Assembly (NCBI GenBank): GCA_964421245.1
Contig: CAYQVW010000001.1
Coordinates: 42,888 to 106,887, forward strand
Source: an uncultured bacterium
GTDB taxonomy: Bacteria; Margulisbacteria; WOR-1; XYC2-FULL-46-14
Direction: 5' to 3'
DNA length: 64,000 nucleotides
Position 1 is the stretch's first letter. Each line of letters starts with the position of its first letter. The position numbers were made by a program, and so were the translations under genes. The notes beneath the pieces were generated by a model. The model made no database searches. It was given only the letters and a program-made list of their open reading frames with translations, and was not told the DNA's origin. This document shows positions 5,997 to 21,259 of the stretch, one piece after another.

Positions 5997-7139
5997 TTAT
6001 TCAAGTGATAAGGGTAATTGTTCGGATATTAAGATGTTTTTGATGCTTCCTTGTTTTTTGCCATTGATAAGAATAAAAGGAGCAGCTCTTTTAATTGATA
6101 CCCCAATATTTTTGAGTTCTAGTAAGCTGGTAAAACGTGCCTCTTTTCTGATCTCAATAATCTTTTGGGCAGTAATTTTTCCAATTCCAGGAATATGCAA
6201 TAGCTTGGTAAAGGAGGCTTTGTTGATCTCTGTTGGGAATTTGTCTAAATTGTGCAAAGCATAATTTAACTTTGGATCCATATTGTTAGGGATTTTTCCT
6301 TCCTTATTAAAATAAATTTCCCCAAGAGAAAATTTATAAAGCCTGAATAGAAATTCAACCTGATAAAGACGGTTTTTTCTTATAAAAGAATTCATTAAGT
6401 TGTGCTTCGTTGAGGGCTTATCTATTGGGCTAAAAGCACTAAAATAAGTTCTGTGTAATCCTTTATTTTCTCTTAGCCAATGCATCGTTTTGGTTATTTC
6501 TTGGTCTGTTTCATTGCTTGCCCCAACAATAAATTGAGTGGTTTGATCAACCCATCCAGTTCTTTTTTTTATTTCGTTTTTAATGATTTCCATGCTATCC
6601 AATATGTCATGGTTAAAGTCTTTTCCAGTTGTGATTTTTTCTAGGTGTTTAGGGGAGGGGGATTCTATGTTTACCGAAACCCGGGTAGCGACTCGAAGTG
6701 CCTTTTTTATGGTTGAAGCATGTACTCCTGGCAGAATTTTTAAGTGAATATATCCTCTAAAGTGATGTTTATAGCGCAGAATAGCGGCAGTATCGATCAT
6801 TTTTTGCATGGTTTGTTCGGGGCTCTTTTCTATGCCCGAACTTAAGAATAATCCGTTGATAGAGTGACGACGATAGATTTTATAAAAGGTGTCAGCCAGT
6901 TCGTTTGGGGTAAAGCTTATTCTAGGTGTATCTCTTGCTATGCGGTTAGCACAATAACGACAATTGTTTATACAACTGTTGGTAAAGAGTGTTTTTAATA
7001 TGGGGATAACTTTGCCGTTTTTGCCAGAGGCATAATAAACTCCGGGGATGTTACCAACTTGGTGTTGGGTTCCGCCACAGCAAGAGACATCATATTTTGA
7101 TGAATCGGCTAAAATTTGTAGTTTTTTTTCAGAATCCAT
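5997..7139 (-). CDS. putative DNA modification/repair radical SAM protein (TIGR03916-like) with C-terminal helix-hairpin-helix
   Basis: N-terminal KLQILADSSKYDVSC box, cysteine-rich CINNCRYCANR cluster site, C-terminal HhH LLHIPGIGKITAQKIIEIRK; 1-nt gap after lexA. Confidence 0.75.
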   Translation of the reverse strand: MDSEKKLQILADSSKYDVSCCGGTQHQVGNIPGVYYASGKNGKVIPILKTLFTNSCINNCRYCANRIARDTPRISFTPNELADTFYKIYRRHSINGLFLSSGIEKSPEQTMQKMIDTAAILRYKHHFRGYIHLKILPGVHASTIKKALRVATRVSVNIESPSPKHLEKITTGKDFNHDILDSMEIIKNEIKKRTGWVDQTTQFIVGASNETDQEITKTMHWLRENKGLHRTYFSAFSPIDKPSTKHNLMNSFIRKNRLYQVEFLFRLYKFSLGEIYFNKEGKIPNNMDPKLNYALHNLDKFPTEINKASFTKLLHIPGIGKITAQKIIEIRKEARFTSLLELKNIGVSIKRAAPFILINGKKQGSIKNILISEQLPLSLE

Positions 7140-7140
7140 T

Positions 7141-7731
7141 TTAAAATTTTCTAAATAGTCCTTTTACTTTGCCTTGGATGGCAATATCTTTGACATAGAT
7201 TGGTTTCATTCTGGAATTGGCTGGTTCAAGGCGGATGTGGTTCTTTTCTTTGTAAAATCTTTTTAAGGTGGCGGCTTCTTTATTGATGAGGGCAACAACT
7301 ACTTCTCCATCATCTGCTGTTTCGCATTTTTCAACCACGATGAAGTCCCCATTTACAATATGATCTTCAATCATGCTATTTCCCTTTACCTGTAAGATAA
7401 AGCAGGGCTTTCTACCAACTAGAGCGGTTGGAACATCCATCTCTTCTTGTTGAGGAATTACTTCAATCGGGGCTCCCGCTGCAATAAAGCCTAGAAAGGG
7501 AAGGGTAGTGGTTGAAAGATACGATCCGGATACTATTTTTATCCCCCTCGATTTATTTTGTCTCTCAATATGACCCTGTTCTTCTAATGCCTCTAAATAT
7601 TTTTGTCCTGCTCGGGGGGAAGAAAAGTTAAAGGCCTTGCAAATCTCTCTAACCGATGGCGGAAATCCATTTTCACGGATATGGTCTTTTAGGTACTGTA
7701 AAATTTGTTCCTGCTTTTTATTTAAATTCAT
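7141..7731 (-). CDS. lexA: LexA repressor (S24 peptidase)
   Basis: N-terminal wHTH (QILQYLKDHIRENGFPPSVREI) and C-terminal autocleavage domain (VKGNSMIEDHIVNGDFIVVEK, Ser-Lys dyad context). Confidence 0.9.
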   Translation of the reverse strand: MNLNKKQEQILQYLKDHIRENGFPPSVREICKAFNFSSPRAGQKYLEALEEQGHIERQNKSRGIKIVSGSYLSTTTLPFLGFIAAGAPIEVIPQQEEMDVPTALVGRKPCFILQVKGNSMIEDHIVNGDFIVVEKCETADDGEVVVALINKEAATLKRFYKEKNHIRLEPANSRMKPIYVKDIAIQGKVKGLFRKF

Positions 7732-7765
7732 GATTATTTCTCCTTTTTCTGGTTTTCTGTCTTGG

Positions 7766-7781
7766 TATACAATTGTATACT
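7766..7781. promoter_or_regulatory. perfect 16-bp palindrome GTATACAATTGTATAC in the lexA / 7833-gene divergent promoter region; candidate LexA operator
   Basis: Read directly: ggTATACAATTGTATAc is its own reverse complement; lies 35-50 nt upstream of the lexA start codon on the minus strand. Confidence 0.45.
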
Positions 7782-7832
7782 AATATATTGCATTGTCAAG
7801 TGCTAATATTTTTGTTATCATTCTAACAAAAT

Positions 7833-9635
7833 ATGAAGAAGGCTATTTTAGTAGCGTTACTCTGTTTTGCTTTGGCATTCTTTGCTCAGGCAAAAACTGC
7901 AGATGACCCCGGGAGGGTCAGTGTTGGGGCTCGGCCGCTTGGAATGGGTAAGGCCTATGTCGGCCTAGCCAATGACGTAAATACGATTTTTTTAAATCCA
8001 GCTGGACTAACTCAAATTCCTCAATGGCAGGCAACCTCTCTCTCTGGAAAATTTGTAAATGAAGTTAATTATCTCAACTTGGGAATGGCCATTCCGACAA
8101 TTCGCGGTAATTTTGGAATAGCCTATGTTAGTAGTGGTCTTGGCTTTAGTGCCTCTACAACAACCCTGGAAGCAGGGAGAATAACCGCAAGCAATGAAAC
8201 TGTAAGTTATTCTGATTACGATACCATTTGGCTATTAAGTTATGCCAGACCACTAAGAGGAGATTCTCTTTCCGCTGGTCTAACTTTAAAGTTATTTTCA
8301 AAGAATTTGACTGGTACTAATCTTTCTTCTGGTAATGCTTCTGGCTATGATCTGGATCTTGGTTTTCTATTTAAGCCCAACAAGGTTTTTAATGCCGGGA
8401 TGGTTTTTAAAAATATTATTCCTGCCAGTATGGGGGGGAAAATTATCTGGGGAACCGGTCTTGAGGAAGCTTTACCAGCGACTCTAAAGAGCGGACTTTC
8501 TTTAAAACTATTGGGAATAGATGGGTTAAGGCAGATTGATAGTCACAGATTGGTTTTGAATTTAGATAATGATTATCCGATCAGCCAAAGTAATATTCCG
8601 ATGACTTGGCATCTTGGACTAGAGTGGAAGCCACTGAAATTTTTATATTTAAGAGTTGGAATTGACCAGGATACAGCTGCAAAATCAGGTGGAGGCGTTT
8701 CGGTTGATGGGAATTTAACGGCAGGGATCGGTTTAGTTCACGGCAAATTCCGTTTTGATTATGCATATCATCAGTACAAAGCCACTCCCGGTGTAGATAA
8801 TCACTATTTTGCACTAAATTATGGTTTGTTCCAAGAAGAAGAAATAGAACTCGAAAGAGAGAGGCTTGAAAAAGAAAGAATTGAGAGAGAAAGACTGGAA
8901 AAGATAAGAAGAGAAAAGGAAAGATTAGAGCGGTTGGAAAGAGAGAGATTGGAGAAGATAAGAAGAGAAAAAGAGAGAATAGAGCGTGAGCGCTTAAGGA
9001 CAATACGAGAAAAAGCACGAATTGAAAGAGAAAAGAAAGAAGTAGAATTAAAAAGAATTAAAGAATTTGAAGAAGCCCTGCGCCGTGAACAATTAGAACA
9101 GGAGCGGCAGGAAAGAGCAAAATTATTAGCAAAACAACGTGAAGCCTTCTTTAAAGGAATTGGTAATGCCTTTGGTAATTTGGGAAATGCAGTTACTGGT
9201 GTTGGGCGGGGTGTGGGACAAGGGGTGGCTAATTTGGGTAAAGGGATCGGTAATGTGGTTGGAAATACTGGAAAGGCATTGGGAGCCTTGGGACAGAATG
9301 TAGGGCGTGGGGTTGGTGGAGCAGTGAATAATGTTGCCAAAGGTCTTGGAAGGATGTTTGAGGCTCCTGCTGTTTTAGATAAAGAAATTGAGCGAGGCTT
9401 TGATGAGGGAGAAAGAAAAGAACAAGAATTGCCAAGGGTTATGACGGTCAAGGAATCTTTTAGAGTCTTGAGAAAAATATTCACTGCCGAGAAACCACTG
9501 GAAGAACTTGGTACACTTGTCCCACAAATTGCCACCGGTCTTCTATTGTTAGGAATCAAGATTATCTTATTTATGTTTGTATTGTTGGTTATTTCTCTGA
9601 TTTTTTCTGAATGGGAGAAGAGAACCAGAGCATGA
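7833..9635 (+). CDS. exported modular protein: signal peptide + FadL/PorV-like OM beta-barrel-type domain + ~105-aa ER/K-rich helix + Gly-rich repeats + C-terminal TM anchor
   Basis: SP MKKAILVALLCFALAFFAQA; GARPLGMGKAYVGLANDVNTIFLNPAGL (FadL-like N-terminal signature); barrel-like segment ends ...NYGLF; then EEEIELERERLEKERIERERLEKIRREKERLE...; then GIGNAFGNLGNAVTGVGRGVGQGV...; then hydrophobic IATGLLLLGIKIILFMFVLLVISLIFS. Confidence 0.6.
   Translation: MKKAILVALLCFALAFFAQAKTADDPGRVSVGARPLGMGKAYVGLANDVNTIFLNPAGLTQIPQWQATSLSGKFVNEVNYLNLGMAIPTIRGNFGIAYVSSGLGFSASTTTLEAGRITASNETVSYSDYDTIWLLSYARPLRGDSLSAGLTLKLFSKNLTGTNLSSGNASGYDLDLGFLFKPNKVFNAGMVFKNIIPASMGGKIIWGTGLEEALPATLKSGLSLKLLGIDGLRQIDSHRLVLNLDNDYPISQSNIPMTWHLGLEWKPLKFLYLRVGIDQDTAAKSGGGVSVDGNLTAGIGLVHGKFRFDYAYHQYKATPGVDNHYFALNYGLFQEEEIELERERLEKERIERERLEKIRREKERLERLERERLEKIRREKERIERERLRTIREKARIEREKKEVELKRIKEFEEALRREQLEQERQERAKLLAKQREAFFKGIGNAFGNLGNAVTGVGRGVGQGVANLGKGIGNVVGNTGKALGALGQNVGRGVGGAVNNVAKGLGRMFEAPAVLDKEIERGFDEGERKEQELPRVMTVKESFRVLRKIFTAEKPLEELGTLVPQIATGLLLLGIKIILFMFVLLVISLIFSEWEKRTRA
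8832..9150 (+). repeat. in-frame imperfect tandem DNA repeats encoding the ER/K (ERLEKIRREKE) helix
   Basis: Reiterated gaaagagagag.ttggaaaag.taagaagagaaaa units are visible in the nucleotide sequence. Confidence 0.6.
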
Positions 9636-12367
9636 GGAAGCTGTTATTTTGTTTTGTGGTTTGGATTTTGATGTTTGCGGTTTCTGTAAACGCTGCAACT
9701 TTTACTGTGACTAATACAACTGATGATGGTAGCAGTGCAACCTGTTTACGCCAGGTTATTATTGATGCTGTTGCAAATGAAGAGGATGATACTATCAATT
9801 TTAATATTCCAGATTCTGATCCGGGATATACTACAGATGCAGGACAAAGTTATTGGAAAATCAGTGTTACCTCTGTTCTTCCCGCTCTTGATCCAAGTCC
9901 AAGTGGAAATACTTATTCGATTACTATTGATGGCACGACTCAAACAACTAATCGAGGAGATACAAATTTACTTGGTCCAGAAATAATGATTGATGGAACT
10001 AATGCCGGGGCAAATGAAAGTGGAATTTCTATTTCTACTGATGATTGTGTGATAAGAAATATTACAATATGTAATTTTGGTAATGAAGGCATAGTAATTA
10101 TTGGATCTGAAAATGCTGCTGTTTATGGTTGTTATATTGGAGTAGATGCTACTGGTGAGGCTGCCCAAGCAAACGGTAATGGAGTTGTTATTGATGCTTC
10201 TACTAATTGTCTTGTAGGGAGTAACGAGAGCTCTAGAAGAAATATAATATCTGGAAATACTGAAACAGGAATTACGATTATGGGGGAGGGTGGATCAGGT
10301 AATAGAATTTCAGGAAATTACATTGGGACTAATCGTTCTGGAACTTCTGCTTTGGGCAATGGTGTTCATGGAATAAGTATTGCAGGAACGGGTAGTTCTG
10401 ATGATCCAAATGATAATCAGGTTGAGGGAAATGTTATATCTGGCAATACAAATCATGGAATCAATATGGATGCTAGTGCTAGCAACGATATTTTAGGTAA
10501 TTATATTGGAGTCAATGCAGCAGGAGATGCTGCAATCGCTAATGGAGAAAGTGGTATTACTATCTTTGATGCTTCTCCAAATAATGCAATAGGGGATGGT
10601 ACGTCTTCTGGCAGAAATGTCATATCTGGCAATACAACTGATGGTATTAGTATTTCAGATGCTGAGTCAGAAGGCTGTACTATTAAGGGCAATTATATTG
10701 GAGTCAATGCAGCAGGAGATGCTGCAATCGCTAATGGAGAAGAGGGGATTGATCTTTCCTTGGCAGTTTCGATTGAAGTAGGTGGAACGTCAAGTGGAGA
10801 TAGAAATATAATATCTGGCAATGCAGGTAATGGATTAATCATATCCGAGACATCAAATACTTTGGTCTATGGAAATTATTTTGGTTTAGATGCAGCAGGA
10901 ACGGCGGCAATAGGAAATGGGGCTAACGGAATTTATATTTCGGGTGGGTCCGCAAACAATTTAGTTGGAGATGGAACAACTGCTGGAAGAAATGTTATGT
11001 CTGCAAATGGTGACAATGGGATTGAGATAGTTGATAGTGGAACCAATTCAAATGAGGTTAACAATAATTATTTGGGGCTTGATGCTAATGGGGCTGAGAC
11101 AGCTGGTATGACAAATACTTCAACCGCTATTTATCATGATGATAATGCTAGATACACAAAAATTACCAACTCAAGGATTAAAAATGATGGAATTGCAATA
11201 GTCATTGCCAATGGAGTAAGTGATTATGAAATATCAAACAATATTATCATTGGTGCAGGAATAACGAATTCGTTTGGGATCAGACTTGAGGGGACTGGTA
11301 CGGTTGGTGAAGGAGGGTTGGTTAGCACTAATGAGGTCCGAGGATTTCATGTTGGTATCTATGCTGATACATCGAGTAGTAAAACTGTTGATATTCTTCA
11401 TAACACACTTGTTTCAAATAACGATTCAACTAACTCAGGGGCGGGTGTGCAAGTTGATGGTGGTTTAGTGGATATCAAAAATTGTATTATTGCGACTGAT
11501 CCTACCGAAACAGCAACTCCTTCTGCCAGTATTGGAATACAGGCTGATGGAGGGACTACTAGTGTTTCGTATTCTGATATCTATGGCAATAGTAACAATT
11601 ATTCAGGCACAGGAACAATTACAAAAACTGCTACCATCCATGCAAAAGCCCTTTTTACTGACTCGGCTAATGATGATTATACTCTTTTATTTAACTCTCC
11701 CTGTATCAATACCGGTACCCCCGAAGGTGCTGATATGGGAATGTATCAATATACCGATGTTACTCCGGAGGTAAGAGTTATATCTCCTAACGGTGGGGAA
11801 AATTGGCAAGAGGAATCGACTCAGACTATTACTTGGACAACAACCGCCTCTGCCAATACTTATGACCTATATTACTCCACCGATAGCGGTGTTTCTTATA
11901 CGGCTATTACTACTGGATTATCTAATGTTGGTACATATAGCTGGACACTTCCTAGTGTGGACTCTTCAACCTCTAGGGTAAGGGTAGTTGCCAATGGAAC
12001 AACCTATACGTCAAGTGATGAATCCGATGCTGATTTTACTATCAGCTCTAAATCTGTACAGGTTGAAGGTGAAGTTATGACCAGGCCAAAGAGTATAAAA
12101 CCACAACAAGGTCAAACAACCAAGATTGCTTATAATCTATCTACACAAGCTGATATTAGAATTCTCTTAATTAGTAAGTATGGAAAAGTACATTGGAACT
12201 ACTTTGCATCAGCGGGGAGTGTGGGAGCCGCGGCTGGTTACAATGAAGTAACCTTTGATGGGAAATCGATTCTGATTGGAGAAACTGTTCCAAATGGCAT
12301 TTATATGATAAAGATTATCTCTCAAAATAGGGTTCTTGAATCTGGCCATTTGGTTGTAATTGATTAG
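9611..12367 (+). CDS. secreted right-handed parallel beta-helix (PbH1) repeat protein with C-terminal Ig/sorting-like domain
   Basis: SP MRKLLFCFVVWILMFAVSVNA; more than 10 repeats of the form NxISGNxxxGIxI / GNYIGxNAAGDAAxANG; C-terminal ~90 aa (VTFDGKS...NGIYMIKIISQNRVLESGHLVVID) resembles FlgD-Ig/T9SS-type C-terminal domains. Confidence 0.7.
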   Translation: MGEENQSMRKLLFCFVVWILMFAVSVNAATFTVTNTTDDGSSATCLRQVIIDAVANEEDDTINFNIPDSDPGYTTDAGQSYWKISVTSVLPALDPSPSGNTYSITIDGTTQTTNRGDTNLLGPEIMIDGTNAGANESGISISTDDCVIRNITICNFGNEGIVIIGSENAAVYGCYIGVDATGEAAQANGNGVVIDASTNCLVGSNESSRRNIISGNTETGITIMGEGGSGNRISGNYIGTNRSGTSALGNGVHGISIAGTGSSDDPNDNQVEGNVISGNTNHGINMDASASNDILGNYIGVNAAGDAAIANGESGITIFDASPNNAIGDGTSSGRNVISGNTTDGISISDAESEGCTIKGNYIGVNAAGDAAIANGEEGIDLSLAVSIEVGGTSSGDRNIISGNAGNGLIISETSNTLVYGNYFGLDAAGTAAIGNGANGIYISGGSANNLVGDGTTAGRNVMSANGDNGIEIVDSGTNSNEVNNNYLGLDANGAETAGMTNTSTAIYHDDNARYTKITNSRIKNDGIAIVIANGVSDYEISNNIIIGAGITNSFGIRLEGTGTVGEGGLVSTNEVRGFHVGIYADTSSSKTVDILHNTLVSNNDSTNSGAGVQVDGGLVDIKNCIIATDPTETATPSASIGIQADGGTTSVSYSDIYGNSNNYSGTGTITKTATIHAKALFTDSANDDYTLLFNSPCINTGTPEGADMGMYQYTDVTPEVRVISPNGGENWQEESTQTITWTTTASANTYDLYYSTDSGVSYTAITTGLSNVGTYSWTLPSVDSSTSRVRVVANGTTYTSSDESDADFTISSKSVQVEGEVMTRPKSIKPQQGQTTKIAYNLSTQADIRILLISKYGKVHWNYFASAGSVGAAAGYNEVTFDGKSILIGETVPNGIYMIKIISQNRVLESGHLVVID

Positions 12368-19435: not shown

Positions 19436-20354
19436 CCGCAGCGGCGGTAACTATTTGGCGAAGAGTTTTGCGCCTGACATCTCCCGCAACAAAAATGCCG
19501 GGGACAGATGTTGTAAATTTACCGGTGGTTGGAATAAATCCGTTTTCATCCAGATCCACGATTCCTTTAATAAAGTCAGTTTGTGGGTTCGATCCAACGT
19601 AAATAAAAATACCATTTGCAGCTATGGTACTTGATTTATCAGTTATTCTATTTTTTATTACAACTTCTTCAACTCTTCCATCTCCTTTTATCTCTGCTAC
19701 CACCGAATTCCATAACATAAAAATCTTAGGGTGGGTTAGAGCCTTTTTAGCTACTGCAAGGTCGGCTCTTAATTTGTCTCTGCGATGAACAATTGATACT
19801 TTTTTTGCATAACGTGTTAGAAAGAGCGCTTCTTCAACGGCGGAATTTCCTCCGCCTATTACTAATATATCCTTGTCTTTGTAGAAGGGACCATCACAGG
19901 TTGCACAATAGGAGACTCCGCGTCCACGTAATTTATCTTCTCCATCCACGTTAAGTTTTTGTGGTTCGGTTCCTACTGCCAAAAGTATTGCTTTGGTTTT
20001 AAATTTTTTGTTTTCATCTACAAAGACCACTTTGTGTTTTTTGTGGTTTTCGATATTAGTAGCGTTTCCGTATATTATTTTCACCCCATAGAGTCTGGCC
20101 TGTTCTTCCAGCTTGTTGGATAGATCGATTCCAGAAACTCCTTCTGGAAATCCAGGATAATTTTCGATGCGATAGGTGGTAGAAGCAAGTCCACCAAGTA
20201 TTGCTTTTTCTATCAGCAGTGTTTTTAGTCCGTATCGTCCTGCATAGATGGCGGCTGTTAGGCCAGCGGGCCCTCCTCCAATAATTGTAAGATCATATCC
20301 TGAAATCATTTTTGTAATAATTGTTTCAATTTTTGGTTGAGTTGATAGTTTCAT
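19386..20354 (-). CDS. trxB: thioredoxin-disulfide reductase
   Basis: GGGPAGLTAAIYAGR FAD site, redox CATCDGPFY motif, GGGNSAVEEALFL NADPH site. Confidence 0.9.
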   Translation of the reverse strand: MKLSTQPKIETIITKMISGYDLTIIGGGPAGLTAAIYAGRYGLKTLLIEKAILGGLASTTYRIENYPGFPEGVSGIDLSNKLEEQARLYGVKIIYGNATNIENHKKHKVVFVDENKKFKTKAILLAVGTEPQKLNVDGEDKLRGRGVSYCATCDGPFYKDKDILVIGGGNSAVEEALFLTRYAKKVSIVHRRDKLRADLAVAKKALTHPKIFMLWNSVVAEIKGDGRVEEVVIKNRITDKSSTIAANGIFIYVGSNPQTDFIKGIVDLDENGFIPTTGKFTTSVPGIFVAGDVRRKTLRQIVTAAADGASAADEARKFIEAH

Positions 20355-21259
20355 AATTTATCTCCTCCTATAATTGCCTTGCTTTTTCCCGATATTTCAA
20401 AACGATCATTTTTTACCGAGTAGGTGATTATTTCACCTGTTAGGGAACTTTTTTCTTGTTCCAGTTTGACGTTTCCTTTTAATGTAACTAATTCGTTGAT
20501 AAGATCATAATCTCCAACTTTGCCATATGCTTTTGCGCTACCTGATAATATAGTAATATCTCCATGGGCCATGATAGTATCTTTTGGTCCGTTAAATTCG
20601 AAATACATCGCTTCAATTGTTGTGACTTGCGGTTTGGTTATGACGATCTTGGGATCCCCACCAAGCAAAACATGAGCGAATTTAATATCACTTTTTAGTG
20701 TTTGGGCATATCCTATTATTTTGTTTCTTCGAAACCATATGTTACCTTTGCAGGATATTTTATTCTCTTTTTGTTTCCAAGTGAGATCACGAGCCTTAAA
20801 GTAGTATCCAGCTCCATCCTTATCTGGAAGGTTAAAAATGTTTTGTCTTGAATTATTTAATAATTTTTTTACTTTGTTTTTTGATTTAGAGTCAAAGCCG
20901 AAAGGTTGTTTCATTTTTATTTCTTTTTTATCCATTTTCCAAACAATTTCCGGAGAGATAAAGTTTAATTCTGCTTTATTTTTTTCAAAGAAAGAACCAT
21001 TAGTGTCTTTTAATATTACGGTATTGTTATCGTTATTCAAGTCGGATGTCTTTGCTCTAATTTCCCAATATTTAGTTCCATTTGAAATCTCGGAGACAAC
21101 AACTCCTTTAAACGATAAGTCGCTTCTTTTGCTTTGGGATTTAATTGCTTTGGCGATTGTTTGCGATATTTCTGTTTTGGGGAGAAAAAGAGCCCAAATG
21201 AATAAGAAAAGTATGAAAATTACGAAAACGAAAAATAATAATTTTTTTATTAGTTCCAT
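20351..21259 (-). CDS. membrane-anchored periplasmic protein, possibly LptC/LptA (OstA-like) family
   Basis: N-terminal TM LLFFVFVIFILFLFIWALFL; beta-rich repeats with LptA-like pattern (GDITILSGSAKAYGKV...LKGNVKL); lies beside the heptose genes. Confidence 0.35.
   Translation of the reverse strand: MELIKKLLFFVFVIFILFLFIWALFLPKTEISQTIAKAIKSQSKRSDLSFKGVVVSEISNGTKYWEIRAKTSDLNNDNNTVILKDTNGSFFEKNKAELNFISPEIVWKMDKKEIKMKQPFGFDSKSKNKVKKLLNNSRQNIFNLPDKDGAGYYFKARDLTWKQKENKISCKGNIWFRRNKIIGYAQTLKSDIKFAHVLLGGDPKIVITKPQVTTIEAMYFEFNGPKDTIMAHGDITILSGSAKAYGKVGDYDLINELVTLKGNVKLEQEKSSLTGEIITYSVKNDRFEISGKSKAIIGGDKL

Follow-up and report, generated by a model that had tools for sequence, protein, structure and literature searches.

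Can one polypeptide hold a beta-barrel in the outer membrane at one end and a helix in the inner membrane at the other, with a rigid rod between the two? This question is raised by a gene at positions 7833..9635 (+) of a 64,000-nucleotide stretch of DNA (contig CAYQVW010000001.1, positions 42,888 to 106,887; referred to here as the window) from an uncultured bacterium of the WOR-1 lineage. The gene, called the tether gene below, is an ATG-start open reading frame (ORF) of 600 amino acids, and its product is read here, with a confidence slightly above even, as an outer-membrane dock for a surface protein bearing a particular C-terminal domain (CTD), a dock that would be tied to the inner membrane by a rigid helix of conserved length. 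The segments of the gene, by position in the window and by residue, are as follows.

7833..7892, + strand: signal peptide, residues 1-20 (MKKAILVALLCFALAFFAQA followed by KT), with an AxA cleavage motif (AQA before K), assigned by inspection and hydropathy and kept in homologs
7893..8831, + strand: PorV/PorQ-family outer-membrane domain, with a plug at residues ~21-65 and a 14-strand barrel at residues 66-330, ending in ...HYFALNYGLF (residue 333)
8835..9143, + strand: ER/K single alpha-helix spacer, residues 335-437, ~15.4 nm long as a helix, with an ER[L/I]E[K/R] pentad repeat
9153..9356, + strand: Gly-rich 11-residue amphipathic repeat block, residues 441-508
9357..9521, + strand: juxtamembrane region, residues 509-563, with ESFxxLRKIFxGEKPLxELG conserved in the alignments and a helix at residues 539-550 in the AlphaFold2 (AF2) model
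9522..9608, + strand: PQIAT motif and C-terminal transmembrane helix, residues 564-592, from hydropathy, AF2 and alignment
9609..9635, + strand: basic tail SEWEKRTRA, predicted to be cytoplasmic from charge counts, and stop codon

An earlier note on this DNA, made from the letters alone, had listed a signal peptide, a barrel, an ER/K run, a Gly-rich block, a hydrophobic segment and an EWEKRTRA tail, and translation, hydropathy and composition windows recovered every one of them; the signal peptide was borne out by its cleavage motif, hydropathy and conservation. What that note missed were the parent family of the architecture, which bears S-layer homology (SLH) domains, and a translationally coupled partner gene with a CTD. 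An identical protein is encoded on 6 public contigs, and the full architecture is kept in 7-8 homologs with 41-78% identity, which speaks against a chance arrangement. The whole protein gave 0 matches against Pfam, even at E<=1. The AF2 model of the full protein was built from a 95-sequence alignment and has a mean pLDDT (predicted local distance difference test score) of 80.

The barrel is the best-defined part of the chain. Residues 29-330 match positions 9-324 of 326 in the NCBIfam profile for the PorV/PorQ family (NF033709) with 97.8 bits against a curated cutoff of 90 (E=8.9e-28), and the equivalog cutoffs are far off, with 21.5 bits against 250 for PorV (NF033710) and 43.6 against 220 for PorQ (NF033711). 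By these scores the tether barrel is a PorV/PorQ-family member at the family level, and it is excluded as an ortholog of PorV or of PorQ. In the AF2 model an N-terminal plug is followed by 14 strands at pLDDT >90, and a Foldseek search of the PDB gave PorV structures as the best matches (8gl6_F, E=1.4e-12, target-normalised TM-score 0.66, and 6h3i_F), with FadL and TodX ranking next. The FadL/PorV-type barrel suspected from the N-terminal sequence box was thus returned by both the profile search and the model.

Relatives of this barrel, nearly all of them from Candidatus Saganbacteria, Margulisiibacteriota and WOR-1, place the same domain in several contexts. Sorted with local hidden Markov models (HMMs), 95 barrel ORFs drawn from 87 sequence sources (the window and 86 loci, numbered with L below) showed three extended architectures, and barrel-only forms occur too. 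Class A, with 63 ORFs, carries the same signal peptide and barrel as the tether protein at roughly 30-50% identity, followed by an Ig-like Glucodextran_B domain and then, at the C-terminus, by three SLH repeats (located by Pfam in P0012 and P0014), and its members are labelled in databases as S-layer homology domain-containing or PorV/PorQ family proteins. Class B consists of barrel, ER/K helix, Gly repeat, juxtamembrane motif and transmembrane helix; it holds the tether protein, P0002, P0004, P0005, P0006 and P0011, the truncated P0003, and the fragments P0121 and P0122. Class C (P0007-P0010 and P0016) joins the barrel through a Pro/Lys/Val/Glu-rich linker of 72-111 residues to a C-terminal transmembrane helix with a basic tail, and this helix and tail differ from those of class B, with no common motif, no stripe built around a Lys, and GxxxG-like motifs instead.

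Because paralogs with the same barrel end in wall-binding SLH domains, the C-terminus of the barrel must, by this sequence comparison, face the periplasm, and the even strand count (14) of the AF2 model was counted for a periplasmic tail as well. The tether protein shares with class A the barrel, the side on which the extension lies and a frequent CTD partner, and it differs in the tail, which is made of SLH repeats in class A and of ER/K helix, Gly repeat and transmembrane helix in the tether protein. A local SLH HMM and Pfam were both negative on the tether protein, and the window holds no paralogs and no SLH proteins. No description of a PorV-SLH fusion, or of an S-layer in Saganbacteria, was found in the searchable literature.

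Judged from these sequences, class A is the common form in the phylum and class B a very rare domain-swap variant, and in classes B and C a spacer and a membrane helix would have taken the place of the wall-binding module. The rarity of class B is read from two broad searches. A profile of the last ~90 residues of class B, run with no word index against 1.84 billion cluster representatives, gave 7 matches, namely 4 full-length class B proteins, 2 fragments of the same family and 1 spurious zinc-finger protein, and a scan of 241 million metagenome records found the C-terminal module at 2 loci. The species-representative scan does not bear on the point, as the prefilter that yielded its 80 loci (L007-L086), the pattern [VM]GARxLGMGK, is not matched by most sequences of classes B and C, so that their absence among those loci is uninformative.

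One genomic position connects the two membrane-anchored classes. Between fliJ and the his/ROK/peptidase U32 genes, one lineage (L004/L005) has the class B protein P0011, and others (L006, L090 and L092) have the class C proteins P0007, P0008 and P0010. Homologs that lack the ER/K segment and keep the synteny, which the earlier note had named as a finding that would speak against its tether, do therefore occur at this locus. What stands there in place of the ER/K helix is an unrelated Pro/Lys spacer with its own transmembrane helix, on the same barrel and at the same locus, and this substitution speaks in favour of a function as spacer and does not overturn it. Class B and class C genes were also found in the same samples (SRR29660421 and SRR22387810), and single genomes may carry both.

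The spacer of the tether protein is unusually uniform. Over residues 341-420, the share of Glu, Arg and Lys is 65-80% in every 20-residue block, and it is 45% in residues 421-440; the spacer has no Pro, and the single Gly of the measured window is that of the barrel-end YGLF, with 0-1 Pro and 0-3 Gly in the corresponding windows of homologs. AF2 draws it as one uninterrupted helix over residues 335-439, with pLDDT up to 98. Measured against composition-preserving shuffles, opposite-charge pairs at i+3/i+4 are in excess (z 2.0-4.4), same-charge pairs are under-represented (z -1.9 to -3.1) and heptad power stays at background (z -1.1 to 0.7), each in 7/7 homologs. Hydrophobic residues track the ER[L/I]E[K/R] pentad with a dominant period of 2.55, a pentad harmonic, and give neither a 3.5-residue signal nor a stripe. 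Charge-pair enrichment combined with background heptad power is the sequence signature of a single alpha-helix and not of a coiled coil, and the segment is predicted to be of that type; an oligomeric coiled-coil stalk was rejected because of the periodicity. The heptad-free single helix of ~105 residues and ~15 nm that had been proposed thus held up in extent, charge patterning and length.

Conservation of length is the property that most suggests a strut. From the end of the barrel to the Gly block, the distance is 105, 100, 99, 98, 109, 102 and 103 residues in seven proteins of 41-78% identity, which corresponds to helices of 14.4-16.1 nm at 0.15 nm per residue, and the Gly block next door varies from 33 to 113 residues while the ER/K length stays at 98-109. 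The segment shares composition, charge pairing, seamlessness and use as a rigid spacer of defined length with the ER/K single alpha-helix (SAH) domains of the myosin VI/X lever extensions and of CAF-1 KER. Characterised SAH domains are mostly eukaryotic and cytoplasmic or nuclear, unlike the helix of the tether protein, which would sit in a bacterial periplasm. The single alpha-helix of CAF-1 KER measures 128 Å (PMC10335832).

Two antisense ORFs face the purine-rich coding stretch of the ER/K helix and Gly block, at 8819-9559 (-, 246 amino acids) and 8581-9018 (-, 145 amino acids); both are almost certainly artefacts of biased codon content.

Beyond the spacer, the Gly block is built on an 11-residue repeat in which Gly occupies positions 4, 8 and 11, and positions 3, 7 and 10 are hydrophobic. 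Its hydrophobic periodicity is 3.6-3.65 in all homologs, with the cleanest register in P0011, and the pattern fits an 11/3 amphipathic helix with a glycine face; AF2 confidence is low across the block. The last ~60 residues are the best-conserved part of the protein outside the barrel, reading ESFxxLRKIFxGEKPLxELGxxxPQIAT, a helix, and then FxEWExRT. The hydrophobic segment covers residues ~566-592, with a Kyte-Doolittle peak of 2.95, and lies within an AF2 helix at residues 556-598. Invariant columns of the C-terminal alignment (A3) are P55, Q56, I57, A58, T59, L64, K67, F71, L75, F82, W85 and R88. Within the helix, the invariant L, K, F, L and F (i, i+3, i+7, i+11 and i+18) share one face and include a mid-membrane lysine, Lys576, and this conserved stripe suggests a specific intramembrane contact, either with another copy of the protein or with a partner.

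The charges around this helix speak to its orientation. In the tether protein the tail has a net charge of +1 and the 15 residues ahead of the transmembrane core a net charge of -2; among the transmembrane-bearing relatives, tails are net +1 to +3 and the 15 residues ahead of the core are net zero or negative in 11/11. Such a distribution fits a helix of the stop-transfer type with a cytoplasmic C-terminus, as the earlier note had supposed from the hydrophobic stretch and its basic tail. The signal-peptide-first, transmembrane-last topology proposed there draws independent support from the SLH-tailed paralogs, the membrane localisation itself being predicted.

A different placement of the same helix would be in the outer membrane, as in Omp-alpha of Thermotoga, which combines SLH, a coiled coil and, at the C-terminus, a transmembrane helix (PMC9388160), or the ER/K segment might form an oligomeric stalk in the manner of OmpM/SlpA, whose stalks are coiled coils (PMC10160955), with no inner-membrane contact in either case. 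This alternative appears very improbable. The barrel is already in the outer membrane, and a rigid helix of ~15 nm would have to double back to reach it again; the positive-inside rule is obeyed by all 11 tails; there is no known route for a helical anchor to the outer membrane; and the coiled-coil version fails on heptad power and on pentad-tracking hydrophobics that form no stripe.

The arrangement of PQIAT motif, transmembrane helix and basic tail formally resembles known C-terminal sorting signals, and wall attachment is the ancestral logic of the family if its SLH-bearing class A paralogs are taken as a guide. The C-terminal module could accordingly be a cleaved signal of the sortase, exosortase or rhombosortase type, by which the precursor would first be held at the inner membrane, and in the mature product an outer-membrane barrel would carry a periplasmic helix that is unattached or is joined covalently to peptidoglycan or lipid, so that it would not be a protein of two membranes. 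We regard this as unlikely. Sortase- and exosortase-type and other C-terminal sorting-signal models in NCBIfam and Pfam gave no match at E<=1; PQIAT is, to our knowledge, not a described sorting signature; and the Pfam listings for the 7-10 kb on either side of the class B and class C loci contain no family of sortases, exosortases or rhomboids. Sorting tags are usually common to many substrates, and this module sits on one family among the 1.84 billion representatives searched, which made a general sorting tag unlikely in its own right. The class C helix and tail share no motif with it, and the conserved helix face with its invariant Lys suggests a lasting intramembrane contact.

That same face is the chief attraction of another alternative, which keeps the two-membrane topology and makes it active. 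In it, the transmembrane helix would engage a motor or sensor, and the rigid helix would transmit force or a signal, as a TonB/TolA-like coupling built in the opposite direction. The invariant Lys576 on the conserved stripe and the strongly conserved juxtamembrane motif would suit such a contact, a stiff single helix of conserved length would suit transmission, and a membrane GAF-HisKA kinase with a small membrane protein is conserved divergently upstream in four loci. The probability given to this alternative is low, comparable to that of a cleaved signal. No ExbBD-, TolQR-, MotAB- or GldLM-like genes lie nearby in the window or the loci examined, the kinase is absent at the locus of P0011 and at class C loci, the synteny may reflect close relatedness only, and class C helices carry GxxxG-like motifs in place of the Lys stripe. 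Anchoring and spacing are accordingly preferred to signalling or force transmission as the physiological purpose of the tether protein, which would be inserted in both membranes at once.

What the outer end of the tether would hold is indicated by the gene immediately downstream.

9632..12367, + strand: partner gene, encoding a signal peptide, a parallel beta-helix passenger and a CTD; its ATG overlaps the tether TGA
12020..12364, + strand: partner CTD, a beta-sandwich resembling FlgD-Ig and type IX secretion system (T9SS) CTDs, proposed as the barrel-docking domain

The tether TGA and the partner ATG overlap as ATGA (9632-9635), the called genes share a 4-nt overlap in L001-L003, and the two genes are translationally coupled. 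In L001 two tether-partner pairs stand in tandem. The passenger is a parallel beta-helix from a family of very wide distribution, in which some proteins bear the label of CSLREA-domain or parallel beta-helix repeat proteins. The CTD, of ~110 residues, is common to the partners, including class C partners with complete C-termini.

Across all loci, 55 of 62 CTD ORFs directly adjoin a barrel gene. Counted from the barrels, a CTD gene is adjacent in class B in 7/7 cases, in class C in the one case counted (1/1), in class A in 34/63 and in barrel-only forms in 9/11; a further complete class C partner, at L091, carries the CTD, and two more class C partners end at contig ends. Partners lie mostly upstream in class A, where they are frequently giant proteins of beta-helix or Ig-repeat type that bear the CTD, and in classes B and C they lie downstream. 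An exception is a 935-residue Peptidase_S74 protein without a CTD downstream of P0011 (L005), where the CTD neighbour is the upstream 394-residue gene. In other Margulisiibacteriota genomes, ORFs of ~109 residues that consist of a signal peptide and a CTD-like domain only (beginning NYPNPFNP...) precede barrel-only genes of 329-372 residues with overlaps of 3-18 nt (L062, L063, L064, L067, L069, L076 and L081), and these look like minimal barrel-CTD pairs.

The relationship of the CTD to known domains emerged from profile comparisons. A profile of 33 CTD sequences run against PDB sequences matched FlgD (E=3.4e-7), residues 1043-1151 of 1156 in PorU (E=3.4e-5) and residues 666-742 of 758 in the PorZ structure 5m11_A (E=1.6e-4), and one CTD copy matches the C-terminal end of the PorU model (E=1.3e-7). 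An AF2 model of the CTD, from a shallow 5-sequence alignment (pLDDT 83), is a seven-strand sandwich with PorU as its best structural match. A homolog search with the 132-residue CTD alone, by a word-index method of limited sensitivity, found nothing. The CTD is thus an Ig-like beta-sandwich at the extreme C-terminus related to known T9SS CTDs, and these profile matches show its homology with FlgD-Ig and with the C-termini of PorU and PorZ.

PorV and PorQ themselves are not known to have a periplasmic extension. The tether protein resembles them in a score above the family cutoff, a 14-strand FadL-like barrel with a plug, and pairing with a protein bearing a T9SS-like CTD, and differs in having 270 extra residues (single-helix spacer, Gly repeat and transmembrane helix) and a host in Margulisiibacteriota. 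In Porphyromonas, PorV and PorQ hold PorU and PorZ at the cell surface, and PorV binds T9SS substrates directly (PMC5562754). Given this arrangement and the homology of the CTD, the gene pair looks, by analogy, like a barrel with docked cargo in the manner of PorV-PorU or PorQ-PorZ, with barrel-CTD binding as the presumed contact.

Taken step by step, the tether protein would be exported by Sec and its signal peptide cleaved, the PorV/FadL-type domain would assemble as a 14-strand outer-membrane barrel, and its C-terminus would exit into the periplasm. There the length-conserved ER/K helix of ~100 residues (~15 nm) would act as a rigid spacer, followed by the variable Gly-rich amphipathic 11-mer repeat and then by the conserved juxtamembrane motif. 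The C-terminal stop-transfer helix would remain in the inner membrane, with the short basic tail in the cytoplasm. On the outside, the barrel probably docks the T9SS-like CTD of the beta-helix protein encoded by the coupled downstream gene, by analogy with PorV, and that protein would be surface-exposed; the resulting chain would run from surface protein through outer-membrane barrel and rigid helix to the inner membrane. Its origin probably lies in the common form of the phylum, a barrel with an Ig-like domain and three SLH repeats, by exchange of the wall-binding module for a spacer and an inner-membrane anchor. A more specific version of this reading takes the ER/K helix as a periplasmic ruler or strut that couples a CTD-docked surface beta-helix protein to the inner membrane, within an undescribed PorV-barrel/CTD anchoring system of Margulisiibacteriota, a sister phylum of Cyanobacteria, that normally runs from SLH to wall; this fuller version is put forward tentatively, at a little less than an even chance.

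Several points weigh against the tether reading. The whole case is drawn from sequence, models and gene context of uncultivated organisms, and with ~8 class B sequences in public data the conservation statistics are thin. The CTD reaches 13-17.3 bits against TIGR04183 in 5/7 partners, below the cutoff of 23, and 13.2 bits against PF18962, for which the cutoff is 27; its fold also matches generic Ig-like domains. SprA/Sov and other T9SS parts such as PorK/L/M/N and PorU were not seen in the annotated ORFs of the window or in the locus flanks, whole genomes not having been scanned, and the searchable literature contained nothing relevant on T9SS in Margulisbacteria. We know of no barrel that the beta-barrel assembly machinery (BAM) assembles while its own C-terminal helix still fastens it to the inner membrane. 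How far the linker really extends is uncertain as well, given the low-confidence Gly block.

How new such a protein would be depends on the comparison chosen. One comparison is with the OmpM/SlpA tethers of diderm Terrabacteria, in which SLH domains bind wall polymers below the outer membrane (PMC10160955), and OmpM homologues have been reported in Saganbacteria and Margulisbacteria (bioRxiv 10.1101/2021.05.31.446380; PMC10160955). The tether protein shares with them the lineage context and the combination of a barrel, an elongated alpha-helical periplasmic stalk and a module fixing it to an inner layer in one chain, and differs in that its barrel comes first and is of the FadL/PorV type, that it has no SLH domain, that its stalk is probably a monomeric single helix and that its target is the inner membrane and not peptidoglycan. 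The domain order of class A is likewise the reverse of that of OmpM. On these sequence features the tether protein would function like an envelope tether, and membership in OmpM/SlpA is excluded by the absence of SLH, the absence of a coiled coil and the reversed order, a barrel in the same chain as the stalk being the feature that it does share. Omp-alpha resembles it in having a rod-like helical periplasmic spacer and, at its C-terminus, a transmembrane helix, and differs in its N-terminal SLH, its coiled coil of ~45-50 nm, the lack of a barrel and a helix thought to lie in the outer membrane (PMC9388160).

A single chain bridging inner and outer membranes through an extended periplasmic spacer is also found in VirB10/TraF, TonB and TolA. 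TonB, TolA and TamB also reach across the periplasm. The spacers of TonB and VirB10 are rich in Pro, and that of TolA is helical; in composition, the class C Pro/Lys linker is similar to that of TonB. These proteins differ from the tether protein in having an N-terminal inner-membrane anchor and no beta-barrel, in making outer-membrane contact through helices or a bound protein, and in being coupled to a motor or ATPase, and no sequence relationship of any of them to the tether protein was detected in Pfam or NCBIfam. VirB10/TraF of the type IV secretion system links both membranes (PMC6120205). The claim in the earlier note that a one-protein tether across the envelope has no precedent was therefore too strong, VirB10 being a partial precedent; what stands as new is the combination of a beta-barrel and an inner-membrane helix in one chain. 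No description of an outer-membrane beta-barrel with its own inner-membrane helix was found in the searchable literature, and we know of no other such protein.

If the tether reading is correct, this would be the first known outer-membrane beta-barrel protein with its own inner-membrane anchor, and it would raise the question of how BAM can assemble a barrel while the opposite end of the chain stays in the inner membrane. The length of Lpp sets the distance between outer membrane and wall in E. coli; a rigid helix of conserved length might set or sense the distance between the two membranes. Attachment to the inner membrane would form a third tether solution beside Lpp/Pal/OmpA and OmpM, in a lineage next to Cyanobacteria that is relevant to debates on envelope evolution. 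Outside Bacteroidota, there appears to be a systematic pairing of PorV-type barrels with giant surface proteins that carry a CTD, which bears on the origin of the T9SS module for cargo recognition. The ER/K helix would also be a natural periplasmic single-helix spacer, possibly useful for engineered envelope-spanning constructs.

Upstream, the tether gene is divergent from lexA (7141-7731, -; TIGR00498, 189 bits), and the space between the two genes holds three elements.

7765..7780, no strand: perfect 16-nt palindrome GTATACAATTGTATAC, unique in the window, overlapping the predicted lexA -10 (TACAAT, 7777-7772) and conserved in L001
7793..7821, + strand: tether promoter-like site, TTGTCA, 17 nt and TATCAT with a TG extension, assigned by consensus alone
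7810..7831, + strand: inverted repeat in the leader, TTTTGTTA-N6-TAACAAAA, which stops one base short of the ATG and is identical in L001 (7298-7319)

The palindrome lies 12 nt upstream of the tether -35 and is a candidate LexA box for the lineage, probably the LexA operator for lexA autoregulation; it neighbours the tether gene and does not belong to the conserved parts of the tether system. The tether promoter-like site is kept in L001, and a similar TTGTCA...TATTAT stands upstream of the tether in L002 and L003, which lack lexA. The leader inverted repeat may be a translational or transcriptional control element. A conserved block in the neighbourhood comprises ScpA, ScpB, a radical-SAM gene, a 331-residue ORF, a GAF-HisKA kinase and a 143-residue ORF. 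Between this block and the tether gene, the window carries lexA and a radical-SAM 'DNA modification/repair' gene (5997-7731, -; TIGR03916, 333.5 bits against a cutoff of 343.5), the same spot in L001 (5210-7281) carries lexA, a 77-residue ORF and a Y-family polymerase, and L002 and L003 carry nothing, a pattern of a variable SOS cassette at a fixed position.

The divergent lexA gene and the palindrome in the shared intergenic region were correctly described from the outset, whereas a meaningful linkage to lexA did not survive comparison. Since lexA is absent in L002 and L003 and the tether gene has its own conserved promoter-like site, the adjacency is incidental. Co-regulation by lexA as part of the system was rejected on these grounds and on the different cassette in L001.

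Other genes bear on the envelope of the host. FlgH and FlgI, the proteins of the flagellar L and P rings, are encoded in relatives, and the window encodes LptC/LptA-like, HldE-, GmhA- and GmhB-like proteins. These ring proteins and genes of the lipopolysaccharide (LPS) type point to a diderm envelope with LPS, and to a host that is a diderm, LPS-containing Saganbacterium (Margulisiibacteriota). One ORF of 302 residues (20351-21259, -) is LptC-like over residues 12-102 (TIGR04409, 35 bits, cutoff 38) and LptA/LptD_N-like over residues 156-294 (PF03968, 36.9 bits), and may be an LptC-LptA fusion of the LPS bridge. At 33986-36260 (+) a FemAB-family peptidyltransferase lies beside a Mur ligase, a hint that this diderm may have a peptidoglycan with interpeptide bridges or with some other modification.

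A 933-residue ORF at 36295-39096 (+) matches a known domain only over residues 574-680 (RelA_SpoT, 41.8 bits), with large unannotated flanks. From 26000 to 64000, nearly all genes lie on the + strand, and the GC skew is sustained and positive (0.17-0.29), consistent with a single replichore and strong gene co-orientation.

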